From the IMG/VR virus record IMGVR_UViG_2703718800_000011: 6,095 bases of DNA; one strand, given 5' to 3'. The position numbers and the translations under genes were made by a program. Each line of letters opens with the position of its first letter. Position 1 is the first letter of the stretch. This stretch comes from a virus. Its lineage: Duplodnaviria; Heunggongvirae; Uroviricota; Caudoviricetes. A model generated the notes under the pieces. The model saw only the letters and a list, made by a program, of their open reading frames with translations, did not search any database and had not been told where the DNA came from. Positions 1,828 to 5,302 of this stretch are shown here, one piece after another.

Positions 1828-2328
1828 TCAGACTTTCGGCAAATCGTAGCGACATAACCATTCATCCGCCGAACGGCGGGCCTCAAGACCGGGGAGTTTC
1901 ACCCCCTTCGAATAAATCCAGCGGATGTACTGCTTACAGGACGCGGGCATCTGCCCGGCATTGATCAGGCGCAGAAGCGTGGAGTTGCGGAAGTTCGTTT
2001 CACCAGCCCAGAAGATCCACGAAGCCAGCGCCACCGTCTGACCACGGGTAAGCGGCACCTGAACACGCCGATCAATGGCCGCAAAGGCCCATTTCATGTC
2101 CTTTTCCAGTAGTTCCAGGCATTCTTCATCCGTCAGGGTCATACCCGGTTTCACATCCGGGCCGGTATGGCCGTAACAGATGGTTGGTGTACCGGTGGGA
2201 TCGATATACGTGGAGTTTTCTTTCCCTTCCCAGTAACCGGTGTAATGCGTGGTAATGGTGAACGTCCCGGCACCGGCCATAACAAGGGCAATCAGCTTTT
2301 TACGCAGTGGTGCGGGGAGTTTTGGCAT
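1828..2328 (-). CDS. SAR (signal-anchor-release) endolysin, phage lysozyme family (GH24, T4/P21-type)
   Basis: 166 aa. Weakly hydrophobic Gly/Ala-rich N-terminus LIALVMAGAGTFTITT typical of SAR domains. E...D...T catalytic arrangement in WEGKENSTYIDPTGTPTICYGHTG, then the GETNFRNSTLLRLINAG and GLEARR motifs that I recall from P21 R-type lysozymes. Confidence 0.85.
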   Translation of the reverse strand: MPKLPAPLRKKLIALVMAGAGTFTITTHYTGYWEGKENSTYIDPTGTPTICYGHTGPDVKPGMTLTDEECLELLEKDMKWAFAAIDRRVQVPLTRGQTVALASWIFWAGETNFRNSTLLRLINAGQMPASCKQYIRWIYSKGVKLPGLEARRSADEWLCRYDLPKV

Positions 2329-2330
2329 TG

Positions 2331-2366
2331 TTACGCTGTCTCATGATGTTCTCTGAGTCAGCGTAA
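2331..2366. promoter_or_regulatory. 36 bp imperfect palindrome abutting the endolysin start codon
   Basis: Plus strand TTACGCTG-t-CTCA-tgatgttctc-TGAG-t-CAGCGTAA: 12 complementary bp in two blocks around a 10 nt centre. It lies in the 71 bp gap between the Mor/C-like stop (2400) and the endolysin ATG (2328). Could be an operator for a dimeric regulator or an mRNA hairpin covering the endolysin ribosome-binding region. Confidence 0.3.
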
Positions 2367-2399
2367 CGGTGAAGGAAAGGCGGCAGGCTTTGCGGAATA

Positions 2400-2822
2400 T
2401 CAGAAAAGTGGCGGTTGCGTTCTTGCCAGATGCAGACGGCGCTGTTCGCGTATGACGGTATAAATCTGGGTTTCTGACATCCTGTAATGGCGGCGCAGGG
2501 TTTCAATTTTTTCGCCCTGGCTCCAGCGGGAAAAAATCTCATTATTGCGCAGTTCGGTGAAAAGGGATTCACCGACCGGGAGATAATAACCACGCCCGCC
2601 CATGTACCCGGCCTGTGCGGCCGCAACTTTACGGGCAAGCATTCCTGCCTGAGCAGGTTCAATCCCCTGACGGTGCAGTTCAGCACTGATCACATCAACC
2701 AGGTCCCGCAGCGTGCCGGGCCAGTTCTTTTTCAGCTCATCATCAGGAATGTCATCCAGACGGTCAATCAGCGCGTGCAGCTGTTCGCTGTCACCAAACA
2801 TGCTCATCTGTGTTTCAGCCAT
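2400..2822 (-). CDS. Mor/C-family transcriptional activator (Mu middle/late activator homolog)
   Basis: 140 aa. N-terminal acidic region with MFGDSEQLHALIDRLDD; C-terminal GGRGYYLPVGESLFTELRNNEIFSRWSQGEKIETLRRHYRMSETQIYTVIREQRRLHLARTQPPLF matches my recollection of the Mor family (GG..YIP, RN..I...F.G, HTH, and the Mu Mor C-terminus ...RRMRRLKYRQYQPSLL). GGAGG SD 5 nt upstream of ATG 2822; located immediately upstream of the endolysin. Confidence 0.75.
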   Translation of the reverse strand: MAETQMSMFGDSEQLHALIDRLDDIPDDELKKNWPGTLRDLVDVISAELHRQGIEPAQAGMLARKVAAAQAGYMGGRGYYLPVGESLFTELRNNEIFSRWSQGEKIETLRRHYRMSETQIYTVIREQRRLHLARTQPPLF

Positions 2823-2854
2823 ACCCGCCTCCGGTCATCATTACACAGGGCAAG

Positions 2855-2888
2855 TTTAAAATAAAAATCCCGCGCTGTGGCGGGATTT
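2855..2888 (-). terminator. Intrinsic terminator hairpin, copy 1 (strong for minus-strand transcripts)
   Basis: AAATCCCGC-gctgtg-GCGGGATTT at 2865..2888: perfect 9 bp stem, 6 nt loop. On the minus-strand RNA the stem is followed by UUUUUAUUUU. Sits 43 nt upstream of the Mor/C-like ATG. Confidence 0.6.
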
Positions 2889-2930
2889 AGAGGCGCTGTA
2901 AATCATAACCCGAAATGAGCTGTGTATTTA

Positions 2931-2959
2931 TTGATCATTTTCCGGTGTAACTATATGAT
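2931..2959 (+). promoter_or_regulatory. Candidate sigma70-type promoter for the plus-strand cargo gene
   Basis: TTGATC (2931..2936), 17 nt spacer, TATGAT (2954..2959) on the plus strand in an AT-rich tract, about 200 nt upstream of ATG 3163. Pattern match only. Confidence 0.3.
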
Positions 2960-3162
2960 AAAGATCGTTTTTATTTTTAAAAATACAAACCCTGAAGGAG
3001 TTTTTCTTATCAAAAAGCTTGTGCATATTGCGGGTTATTGTTGTTTCATCAACATGAAAACCAATTATCCCAACTCTTAAAGCACACCAGGCTTGCTCCA
3101 GTGCAAAAACAAATAATTTCAGTCTGCCTGACAGCGTTCCACCGGAATAAAGGAAGATATCC

Positions 3163-3585
3163 ATGAAACAACCTCCATCTTTGCTTTTATCGTGCCCACC
3201 AGAACTGGCCCATGAACTCAATGATCTGGCGAAAGAGTATAAACTTACAAATCATAATATAGAAGCAGCAACACTTAGTGCTGCCGGAAGCGATATTGTA
3301 TTGATCGTTCTGGCCGCAGCTTCATGCGATGGGTTCTGGCAGGCATTAGCCAGTATGTTTCAGACGTGGTTACATCGTAAACCAACAAAACAAACACCCC
3401 CGGAAAAGAAAGTTATTCGTAGCGTCATTGTTCGTAGCTGGGAACACTATCAGGAGACAACTAAACAAACTGAATTTTATAACTTTGATGCTGATGAGCT
3501 GGCTAAATTGATAGCGTTATATGAAAAACCAGATGAAACAATTGGTTGCATAATCCCGTCAGAAACGGAAATTCAGGAAAAATAA
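3163..3585 (+). CDS. Hypothetical protein encoded by an opposite-strand, AT-rich moron cassette; one predicted hydrophobic helix; family not recognised
   Basis: 140 aa. The only convincing plus-strand ORF in the window. ATG 3163 is preceded by AAGGAAG with a 6 nt spacer. Stop TAA (3583..3585) runs directly into terminator copy 2. Composition is visibly more AT-rich than the flanking phage genes. Hydrophobic segment SDIVLIVLAAASCDGFWQALASMF; C-terminal half charged and acidic. Confidence 0.6.
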   Translation: MKQPPSLLLSCPPELAHELNDLAKEYKLTNHNIEAATLSAAGSDIVLIVLAAASCDGFWQALASMFQTWLHRKPTKQTPPEKKVIRSVIVRSWEHYQETTKQTEFYNFDADELAKLIALYEKPDETIGCIIPSETEIQEK

Positions 3586-3608
3586 AATCCCGCACTGTGG
3601 CGGGATTT
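3575..3608 (-). terminator. Intrinsic terminator hairpin, copy 2 (terminates the minus-strand early operon after the GemA-like gene; also follows the plus-strand cargo gene)
   Basis: AAATCCCGC-actgtg-GCGGGATTT at 3585..3608: 9 bp stem, 6 nt loop. On the minus-strand RNA it is followed by UUUUAUUUUU. Begins 4 nt after the GemA-like stop (3612). Near-identical to copy 1 over about 31 bp. Confidence 0.65.
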
Positions 3609-3611
3609 GGG

Positions 3612-4121
3612 TTAACAGGGGAATGATTTTTCATACAGCCTGCAAACGCGCTCATAACTCATCACTGCACGCTCCGACATATCCAGGGCTGCCAGCATTT
3701 TGCGGCGGTGCCAGCGTTTGAGACGCTCCAGCACATCAGAGGCCAGCTCGGGGTGTTGCTCCAGCCACTGCCAGTTAGCCACACCTTCGCCGCCGTTCTG
3801 CGCGGCCGTCTGCGATTGCACCCAGCGGTTAAGGGCCGTTTCCGCACCATCAGAAATAAAGCCCTGCCGGTGCATCACTTTCCAGATGGCGCGAATTTTG
3901 GCGGTCACCGTACCCGGCTTTAAGGCCCGGTTAACCGGTTTCTGACGCACTTTAAAACCGCGTTTTTTGAAAACATCCAGTACGCGGGATAACTCATCCG
4001 GTGACATATCCCGGCAACTGGCTTTACCGGTGGCTGCCAGCAGTGCGGATGTATAGGTTTCATCATCCAGAGCAAGCTCGCGTTTTGCCACATGAATGGC
4101 AGATATCAGTTTTCCTCTCAT
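3612..4121 (-). CDS. GemA-like protein (Mu gp16 family, DUF1018-type)
   Basis: 169 aa. N-terminus MRGKLISAIHVAKRELALDDETYTSALLAATGKASCRDMSPDELSRVLDVFKKRGF fits my recollection of the gp16/GemA signature (LI..IH.AK..L.LDD..YR.LL...TGK.S..DM...EL..VL). Start overlaps the upstream stop as ATGA. Confidence 0.7.
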   Translation of the reverse strand: MRGKLISAIHVAKRELALDDETYTSALLAATGKASCRDMSPDELSRVLDVFKKRGFKVRQKPVNRALKPGTVTAKIRAIWKVMHRQGFISDGAETALNRWVQSQTAAQNGGEGVANWQWLEQHPELASDVLERLKRWHRRKMLAALDMSERAVMSYERVCRLYEKSFPC

Positions 4122-4429
4122 ACCGTATTTACCTTTTTACGGACATGGAAAGCCTTTTCTGGCTCATTCCACCGGATATGATGCGTTGGCGGAATAATCA
4201 TTATGTGCCAGCCATCTCTGGTTGTTATTCGGCAGAAAAACTCACCGCTGTATAACACAATGGCCTGCTGAATAAGCGCATCCGCAGCCAGCTCAAGCAG
4301 ATATCTTTTATCAAAAAGGCTGATAATTTTCCGGCATAACCACCGGGTGATAACAAATGCGCCGAAAAACGATGTGATATATAAACACCAGAACAGCAGA
4401 GAAATATTGTCCGTTATTTGCTCATCCAT
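4118..4429 (-). CDS. Small membrane protein, unknown function
   Basis: 103 aa with one clear transmembrane segment ISLLFWCLYITSFFGAFVITRWLC. GGGAGA SD 6 nt upstream of ATG 4429. Sequence looks more AT-rich than its neighbours. Translationally coupled at both ends. Confidence 0.55.
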   Translation of the reverse strand: MDEQITDNISLLFWCLYITSFFGAFVITRWLCRKIISLFDKRYLLELAADALIQQAIVLYSGEFFCRITTRDGWHIMIIPPTHHIRWNEPEKAFHVRKKVNTV

Positions 4430-4754
4430 TGTGTATCTCCCGTAATTCCGGTAAAGCCGAAATATGGCACCAGTGCGTCACCTGTCCATCCTCATCTTCA
4501 AGGCAGGCTCCGGTTTCTTCATCAACAAAAAAACCTTCATACCCGATATGGCCGATGCGCAGCTCCTGTCGGTGACCGTACTGAACAATCAGTACAACAG
4601 CCTCCATATCAGGCGGGAAAGCATCATTCAGTGAATGCCAGGGATAACCGCGCAAATCCCCGAAATAAACCCCGGTCAGGGTTCCGCCACAGACCGGCAT
4701 CCCGGCGGCACATACCAGAGGTTCGTCTGATTCAACAAATAAGGTCGTTATCAT
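4422..4754 (-). CDS. Hypothetical acidic protein, unknown function
   Basis: 110 aa (MITTLFVESDEPLVCAAGMPVCGG...FVDEETGACLEDEDGQVTHWCH...). GGGAG SD 8 nt upstream of ATG 4754. ATGA overlap with the upstream gene and 8 nt overlap with the downstream one. Confidence 0.5.
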   Translation of the reverse strand: MITTLFVESDEPLVCAAGMPVCGGTLTGVYFGDLRGYPWHSLNDAFPPDMEAVVLIVQYGHRQELRIGHIGYEGFFVDEETGACLEDEDGQVTHWCHISALPELREIHNG

Positions 4755-5302
4755 GGCGTTAACTCCCGTAATACAGCGTCCCCGGCAGTCCGGCGATGGT
4801 GATAAATAAAATTCACCGTACTCTCGGATAATTCAAATTTCTCGCCTATTTCCCGGAAGGTAAGACGTCGTGGTGATTCAGCATCCCGTAATTCACGAAT
4901 AAGATGAACATCATCGTCAGGTATACGGGTGAAGGGCAGCAATTCTCCGTATTTTTTCATGCTTACGCCAATATATCGCGCCCGATTGTGGACAGAATCC
5001 CGGTCTCGCCCCAGATATTCTCCTATTTGCTTACCGGTCATCGTTCTGGCATTTTTTCGGATAAATTTATCTTCATCATGTTTAAATCTTGGACGTTTGC
5101 ATTTGAGCAACTCCGGGTAAGTACCGCGTAATAAAACAATCCGGTTATGTACACCCCAGAAACTTCTTTTTACCCTGACAGCAATATCCTTAACCGGGGT
5201 GGATGAATAAAGCGCAATCAGCAGCGCATCTTCTTCAGGTGTCCACGGACGGACATGAGCGGGGGCGCGACCTTTTCGCCCCATGGGTTGTAAAATCATC
5301 AT
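4751..5302 (-). CDS. Putative DNA-binding protein with repeated helix-turn-helix-like segments
   Basis: 183 aa. AGGGGGTGA SD upstream of ATG 5302. Contains WTPEEDALLIALY (SANT/Myb-like signature) plus two further HTH-like stretches, MTGKQIGEYLGRDRDSVHNRARYIGV and LTFREIGEKFELSESTVNFIYHHRR. Family not recognised. Confidence 0.55.
   Translation of the reverse strand: MMILQPMGRKGRAPAHVRPWTPEEDALLIALYSSTPVKDIAVRVKRSFWGVHNRIVLLRGTYPELLKCKRPRFKHDEDKFIRKNARTMTGKQIGEYLGRDRDSVHNRARYIGVSMKKYGELLPFTRIPDDDVHLIRELRDAESPRRLTFREIGEKFELSESTVNFIYHHRRTAGDAVLRELTP

Follow-up and report, generated by a model that had tools for sequence, protein, structure and literature searches.

A candidate promoter of a C-type late activator gene that apparently overlaps the early-operon terminator in a Mu-like prophage without Mor

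Mu-type regulatory regions and the Mor/C gene of the prophage

In phage Mu, the promoter Pm carries a 5-6-5 dyad that spans positions -51 to -36 and is centred at -43.5, as well as a recognisable -10 hexamer, with no good -35 hexamer and no extended -10 (PMC4287176); the positions -57G and -54A have also been described for this promoter (PMC4390567). We rebuilt the Mu coordinates from PMC4390567, PMC4287176 and the GenBank annotation and set the +1 of Pm at L004:1725; a +1 at 1732 was rejected, as it fails on the dyad and on the statement that there is no TGn. With the +1 at L004:1725, the Mor site reads AGTAA-AGCCGG-TTAAT and a hairpin occupies approx. -48 to -28. In the Mu record, a predicted terminator after mor (9179-9200) is located inside the annotated Mor-dependent Pm (9163-9233). 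This terminator is known as t9.2 in the older literature. As for phages with a single Mor/C gene, the abstract on Haemophilus parasuis phage SuMu names gp16 (GemA), Mor and a peptidoglycan-recognition protein one after the other, with one Mor-family entry among the proteins named (PMC3447690).

The window analyzed here, i.e., a stretch of 6,095 nucleotides from the IMG/VR virus record IMGVR_UViG_2703718800_000011, was found to match, with 100% identity, a complete Mu-like prophage that E. coli STEC2018-607 carries in its cellulose synthase gene bcsA (L001 30958; host flanks at L112 2053-3573). As bcsA, encoding the catalytic subunit of cellulose synthase, is interrupted, this strain is probably unable to make cellulose. 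All phage genes in the window are on the minus strand, and the gene order is early region, gemA, Mor-family gene, lysozyme, spanins, TraR/DksA-like gene and head genes. The last gene of the early operon, gemA (3612-4121, minus strand), encodes a protein of the gp16 family (PF06252, 1.3e-29; RefSeq "gp16 family protein"). The next phage gene in this order (2400-2822, minus strand), which carries the Shine-Dalgarno sequence GGAGG at 2832..2828 (minus strand; GGAGG or GAGG in relatives), encodes a 140-aa C-type late transcription activator of the Mor/C family that matches PF08765 over the full model (1e-30) and phrog_532, "late transcriptional activator". The identity of this activator protein to Mu C is 40% (7e-38), as compared to 28% for Mu Mor (1e-16); it is equal in length to Mu C (140 aa) and is encoded, as is C in Mu, directly upstream of the lysozyme gene. 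Judged by sequence, the activator is a C orthologue and not Mor.

A preliminary description of this DNA had seen only one Mor/C-family gene and had raised the possibility of a second Mor/C-like activator upstream. Our searches bear out the single gene and found no second one, as Mu Mor, Mu C and the window protein, used as tblastn queries on the left 41.9 kb of the prophage, gave one significant match, the annotation of the right end contains no other Mor/C gene, and a Pfam domain search detected no Mor domain in the early ORFs. A marginal Mor match at L001 26271-26477 (E = 0.013) straddles two ORFs and was taken as spurious. Within the range of these searches, the phage is one with a C orthologue and without Mor, and the activator is the sole Mor/C gene of the prophage. 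As to the suggestion that the regulatory wiring may differ from that of Mu, Mor is missing here, but the overlap of a predicted terminator with a promoter already occurs in Mu. Prophages without Mor pose the question of what switches on the late activator gene, for which the relevant unit is the 80 bp at 2823-2900.

One early gene (4751-5302, minus strand) encodes a 183-aa protein that matches phrog_323, "transcriptional regulator" (5e-58), and gives weak Myb/SANT and sigma-70 region-4-like helix-turn-helix matches; relatives of this protein (approx. 50-98% identity) are present in 26 of the fetched loci, mostly from E. coli clades. The 183-aa protein represents a candidate for the missing Mor-like function.

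At the other end of the activator gene, a hairpin with 14-bp arms (2330-2367, minus strand; -21.5 kcal/mol, z = -4.4) stops 1 nt short of the lysozyme ATG (2328), for which a Shine-Dalgarno sequence is not visible. A hairpin of different sequence occupies the equivalent lysozyme position in the Salmonella relative L006. The hairpin before lysozyme may control lysozyme translation or transcription. Elsewhere in the prophage (L001 12818-12905), a "tRNA-OTHER" is annotated in RefSeq; it runs against the direction of the phage genes and is placed between those for head morphogenesis and virion morphogenesis.

The duplicated hairpin and the 720-bp cassette

Two nearly identical hairpins are found between gemA and the activator gene. 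Hairpin copy 1 (2888..2865, minus strand; AAATCCCGCCACAGCGCGGGATTT) forms the stem-loop AAATCCCGC-CACAGC-GCGGGATTT, in which 9 pairs, including 5 G-C pairs, enclose a loop of 6 nt, and is a perfect DNA palindrome; it is followed by the T-tract TTATTTTAAA (2864..2855, minus strand). The distance from the stem end at 2865 to the activator ATG at 2822 is 42 nt (43 nt had been given), and the previously described minus-direction terminator is confirmed here as a 9-bp stem with a T-tract just upstream of the activator gene. Hairpin copy 2 (3608..3585, minus strand), which differs from copy 1 by a single loop base, starts 3 nt past the gemA stop and is followed by the T-tract TATTTTTCCT at 3584..3575. 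Folding of the 24-nt RNAs yielded -12.9 kcal/mol for copy 1 (z = -4.0) and -12.6 kcal/mol for copy 2, with 0 of 200 shuffles as stable in either case; these values are comparable to those of the hairpins after Mu mor and C (-11.7 and -13.7 kcal/mol, respectively). Both copies consist of a G+C-rich stem-loop, directly followed by a U-tract, at the end of a gene on the same strand, i.e., the sequence criteria of an intrinsic terminator.

A consensus scan called 13 terminator-like sites, as compared to 6.1 ± 2.4 in shuffled sequences; a lone terminator-like site is therefore weak evidence, and the real evidence is conservation. The position of the copy 1 hairpin is kept in prophages of E. coli, Salmonella and Citrobacter as well as in IMG/VR contigs for which the host is not stated. 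Overall, by sequence features and conservation, the hairpin is a canonical intrinsic (Rho-independent) terminator, representing the early-operon terminator of the Mu-like prophage. An Rfam scan of 2300-4200 gave only matches below the gathering score.

Both hairpins are contained in a 31-nt direct repeat (2858-2888 and 3578-3608; 90% identical, spacing 720 bp). The low-GC cassette between the repeats (2889..3577), together with one repeat copy, forms a 720-bp unit, and its GC content is 34-44% as compared to 52-61% for the flanks. The region from gemA to the activator gene matched 232 E. coli records; among 5426 complete E. coli genomes, 231 contain such a related prophage of the E. coli and Shigella group. 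The cassette itself was present in 4 of these genomes (4/5426; 4/232 matching records) and was 100% identical in all 4, while in most other records among the matches listed the matched span was approx. 720-860 bp shorter. In two relatives without the insert that were read directly (L002 and L003), a single hairpin is located 3-4 nt past the gemA stop and approx. 42 nt before the activator ATG. As far as these comparisons go, the layout that is common, and also ancestral, has one hairpin with approx. 42 nt between it and the ATG. Copy 2 aligns with the single hairpin of the insert-free relatives and, by this alignment, is the early-operon terminator in its ancestral position, in agreement with the earlier proposal that copy 2 ends the early operon after the GemA-like gene. 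The two hairpins represent one ancestral terminator, duplicated when the cassette inserted and doubled 31 nt.

Copy 1 could be regarded as a duplication scar without a role in activator expression, at most a terminator for ORF-B of the cassette, in a prophage that is maybe regulatorily crippled. Consistent with a scar, copy 1 lies 39 nt beyond the ORF-B stop codon, the insert is rare (4/5426 genomes), and an internal stop makes one structural gene of the prophage a pseudogene. We nevertheless consider this explanation very unlikely, as the sequence from the hairpin to the activator ATG is identical to that of the insert-free L003, and as a homologous Salmonella cassette, at approx. 60% protein identity, implies that the arrangement is old and tolerated.

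The cassette contains two ORFs, i.e., ORF-A (140 aa; 3163-3585, plus strand), which converges on gemA and is 58% identical to a Salmonella prophage ORF at the same junction, and ORF-B (78 aa; 2928-3164, minus strand), which has the phage orientation, is a RefSeq CDS and is 61% identical to its Salmonella counterpart. ORF-A gave no Pfam, PHROG or PADLOC match, and neither cassette ORF has a recognisable function. A promoter-like site directed toward ORF-A, TTGATC-N17-TATGAT (2931..2959, plus strand), was identified by the scan with 9/12 matches. Read on the plus strand, i.e., in the direction of ORF-A, the hairpin that follows ORF-A has no T-tract. ORF-A and ORF-B point away from each other, and a single CATG (3162-3165) holds both start codons in back-to-back overlap, so that each promoter must be inside or beyond the other gene; in the homologous Salmonella cassette the two ORF starts are 13 nt apart. 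If transcription of ORF-A started from the site at 2931-2959, its leader of approx. 200 nt would be wholly antisense to ORF-B. This promoter-like site includes a GATC in the -35 hexamer and another GATC just past the -10, and a motif with GATC that is similar by eye is present in the related L007 cassette (2860-2930) and in the L043 insert. Dam methylation might affect the cassette promoter-like site.

Accessory cassettes inserted between conserved phage genes are known as morons. The cassette described here resembles a moron in that it has low GC content and is placed between genes that are adjacent in relatives, and its promoter-like site and the terminator at its flank may be further points of resemblance; it differs in that its two conserved ORFs have back-to-back overlapping starts and in that it is flanked by a duplicated phage terminator. 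Across relatives, the junction of gemA and the C-type gene was found to hold at least five unrelated kinds of cargo with sizes of 0.5-1.5 kb, and the junction is thus an insertion hotspot. It is a useful place to seek genes that are expressed in lysogens.

A promoter-like core next to the activator gene

Three routes of activator expression had been proposed in the preliminary description, i.e., read-through of the terminator, antitermination, and an unusual promoter overlapping the hairpin, on the argument that there is almost no room for a conventional promoter downstream of the hairpin. This argument is valid, as such a promoter cannot fit in 42 nt. Among the three routes, the overlapping promoter is favoured by the comparative data presented below, while nothing that we found points to antitermination. 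We estimate a probability of approx. 0.55 that the terminator ending the early operon after gemA is fused here with the promoter of the C-type activator, as judged from sequence comparisons.

The candidate promoter (all positions on the minus strand) would start with the -35-like hexamer GCCACA (2881..2876; 3/6 matches), which straddles the boundary of the 5' arm and the loop, with two bases in the arm and four in the loop. The 17-bp spacer (2875..2859) would comprise the last two loop bases, the 3' arm and most of the T-tract, which would thus double as the downstream part of the spacer. The candidate -10 hexamer, TAAACT (2858..2853), is located 6 nt after the stem and has 4/6 matches, including the A at position 2 and the T at position 6. 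With a predicted start at approx. 2846, the leader (2846..2823) would be 24 nt in length and would contain the GGAGG. The consensus scan did not call this promoter candidate in the window.

If the terminator and the promoter are fused in this way, incoming early transcripts would end at the hairpin, while the activator mRNA would start downstream of the hairpin and hence would not include it. The 720-bp two-gene cassette inserted at the terminator and duplicated 31 nt; copy 2, after gemA, would have retained the function of a terminator, and copy 1 that of a promoter. The promoter would be weak and would depend on a lytic-phase factor. As a constitutive promoter of a late activator would kill lysogens, some control is needed, and the promoter is probably either factor-dependent or confined to lytic growth.

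Approx. 80 loci whose products are related to the activator at 40-100% identity were collected from genomes and from IMG/VR, and the 48 distinct upstream regions that they represent were compared; in the profile search of genome contigs, the single-protein query gave 0 matches and the alignment query 3 loci. The palindrome A(A)ATCCCGC-N4-6-GCGGGAT is kept down to approx. 44-49% activator identity, and Pasteurellaceae phages (40-45% identity) have a weaker palindrome, ATTCCAC..GCGGAAT. In all clades, a -10-like hexamer was found at a fixed offset of 8 or 6 nt past the 3' arm (GCGGGAT or GCGGAAT). With the 8-nt offset, this hexamer is TAAACT in the window clade, TATAGT or TATATT in the Salmonella and Citrobacter clade, and TATCAT in Pasteurellaceae, while two further clades have TATACT or TATAAT with the 6-nt offset. 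The -35-like hexamer is poorly conserved in the clades with 6-nt spacing. In an alignment of 17 sequences, the invariant or near-invariant columns were the A of GGGAT, the T-tract, the TA of the hexamer (T at window position 2858 invariant, A at 2857 nearly invariant), one base within the Shine-Dalgarno region and, in the start codon, the T. A terminator alone would equally lead to a conserved T-tract.

In the independent insertion variants L007, L020, L043 and L046, the breakpoint took the gene-proximal 5' arm, so that, by sequence, no terminator is left there, and the block GCCACAG..GGGATTTTT..-10 is retained; in several independent insertion variants the retained block starts no more than 1-2 bases from the -35-like hexamer. 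In L050, L051, L057 and L087, the palindrome is lost, and the T-run and the -10 hexamer are kept. An intact hairpin was located 540-790 nt upstream in those loci in which the pattern search matched (L014, L024, L043-L051, L061 and L062), and L007 has an intact hairpin after gemA. In the sequences compared, the promoter-like core always stays beside the activator gene, and the terminator stays at the end of the upstream gene. Because the hexamer is conserved, including in variants without the 5' arm, a promoter of its own that overlaps the hairpin is the most likely source of activator mRNA. In one family of insertion variants (L044, L046, L048 and L050), GGAAAA replaces the lost 5' arm approx. 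34 nt before the -10 and could pair with TTTTCC of the T-tract, giving a different and weaker hairpin (-7 to -11 kcal/mol). The GGAAAA hairpin may be a chance structure or a rebuilt one.

Intrinsic terminators with a stability of approx. -13 kcal/mol rarely give complete termination. Leaky termination might therefore be the main route of expression, with a promoterless activator gene, transcription through the hairpin (approx. -13 kcal/mol), and the terminator as an attenuator that delays or limits activation of the late genes. This would fit the position of the activator gene, directly downstream of the hairpin in the same orientation, the lack of a Mor that could serve a Pm-like promoter, and the weak hexamers of the candidate promoter. 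On the other hand, transcripts would have to pass two terminators as well as 720 nt that include sequence antisense to ORF-A, a cassette gene with its own promoter-like site, and read-through is thus disfavoured as the main route; at least five kinds of cargo (0.5-1.5 kb) at the junction in relatives would each cut it further, and the -10-like hexamer is conserved at its fixed offset even where the hairpin is gone. Overall, we regard read-through as an unlikely main route in this prophage, although it could act as a trigger in insert-free relatives.

Two other candidate -10 elements were considered for the overlapping promoter. An extended -10, TGTAATGAT, was rejected, as the start that it specifies would remove the Shine-Dalgarno sequence. 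TGTAAT (2845..2840) would place the hairpin dyad at -43.5 with exact arithmetic, but is missing from L002, which represents the closest E. coli clade, and from all others; as TAAACT/TATAnT is conserved instead, TGTAAT was rejected as a conserved feature.

The candidate promoter resembles Mu Pm in that the early-operon terminator would be located inside the promoter of the next unit, upstream of a recognisable -10 hexamer and with a poor -35 hexamer (3/6 here), as read from the sequence. It differs from Pm in several respects. The Mu terminator follows mor, whereas here it follows gemA and there is no mor gene. Pm needs Mor on the -43.5 dyad, whereas no conserved dyad is found at -43.5 here; relative to a start at approx. 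2846, the region from -51 to -36 reads GTTAACCCCAAATCCC in insert-free relatives, with no dyad, and consists of unrelated sequence in the insertion variants. The hairpin, at approx. -48 to -28 in Mu, would be at approx. -42 to -19 here, i.e., approx. 6-9 bp closer to the -10. Finally, Pm drives gp18-20 and then C, whereas the promoter proposed here would drive the C orthologue directly. Between the candidate promoter of the window and Mu Pm, the sequence match is just a short CCTGTG. By these comparisons, the arrangement is apparently an ordinary variant of the known design of Mu, with a promoter that apparently overlaps the hairpin. This reading would explain, for Mu-like prophages, why a terminator is placed right before an essential regulator, and it would extend to the related E. 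coli and Shigella prophages found in the 231 complete genomes.

The palindrome as a putative protein-binding site

As the hairpin is a perfect palindrome in DNA, it may also bind the C-type activator, with auto-activation or auto-repression as the outcome, or an early regulator, in which case terminator, promoter and operator would be one 24-bp element. Such binding is compatible with the overlapping promoter, and we treat it as a tentative addition to it, rather unlikely but the least improbable of the further explanations considered here. [quoted passage not shown] One observation in favour of binding is that the palindrome arms share AATCCCGC with Plys (ATAATCCCGC). In our alignment, this Plys stretch lines up with the ATAAC/T-CCC that is conserved across the four annotated late promoters of Mu; the assignment of the C site follows our own register, which was derived from the 16-bp dyad centred at -43.5 (PMC2582627). 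In addition, the only other intergenic AAATCCCGC in the prophage is located 47 nt before the protease (I-like) gene and is conserved as CTGAARTCCCGCAAAACC. The inner 16 bp of the palindrome, CCCGC-CACAGC-GCGGG, follow the 5-6-5 scheme described for the Mor site, in which the spacer is G/C-rich (PMC4390567), and the 183-aa early regulator (phrog_323) represents a possible alternative binder.

Pasteurellaceae phages are also relevant here. In the Pasteurellaceae loci L012, L013 and L085, which we compare with SuMu and other Mu-like phages that have a single Mor/C gene, the upstream region of this gene carries the palindrome and, after 8 nt, TATCAT. They differ from the window in that the palindrome is weak and that another, stronger terminator-like hairpin is located approx. 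50-60 nt further upstream. That the weak palindrome keeps its 8-nt spacing to TATCAT despite this separate hairpin is consistent with a role in binding.

Several observations argue against binding. With the conserved -10, the centre of the dyad would be at approx. -30.5, as compared to -43.5 for the Mor and C sites, and the -43.5 register requires TGTAAT, a hexamer that even the closest E. coli clade lacks. In Mu, the dyad of the C site is imperfect; it is centred at -43.5, and in our alignment 23 bp separate its ATAAC arm from the -10. The putative site here is a perfect palindrome approx. 13 bp closer to the -10. The spacing from the box to the -10 is inconsistent (26 nt here, 18 or 31 nt at the protease gene and 23 in Mu), the com-mom upstream region has no box, and variants without one or both arms exist. 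Moreover, a palindrome in DNA and a hairpin in RNA predict identical symmetric substitutions. As a general box of late promoters, AAATCCCGC was rejected, since it is present before the protease gene, absent before com-mom and only loosely similar before lys; it represents a weak lead.

Taken to its full extent, the 24-bp palindrome would have three jobs, i.e., early terminator in RNA, -35 hexamer and spacer in DNA, and operator for the C-type activator or the 183-aa regulator; it would also be the recombination site at which cassettes are captured, in a widespread family of prophages without Mor. We consider this combination, which again is drawn from sequence, distinctly improbable, more so than read-through and less so than a mere duplication scar. 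If true, a two-step, self-latching switch would replace the three-step cascade of Mu (early, Mor, C).

In the region upstream of the protease gene (L001 12131-12305), which is outside the window, an invariant CCGGCTTATGCTGCCGG stem comes after the conserved box CTGAARTCCCGCAAAACC, and the ATG that follows has no Shine-Dalgarno sequence. If TATGCT represents the -10 hexamer in this region, the protease mRNA would be leaderless.
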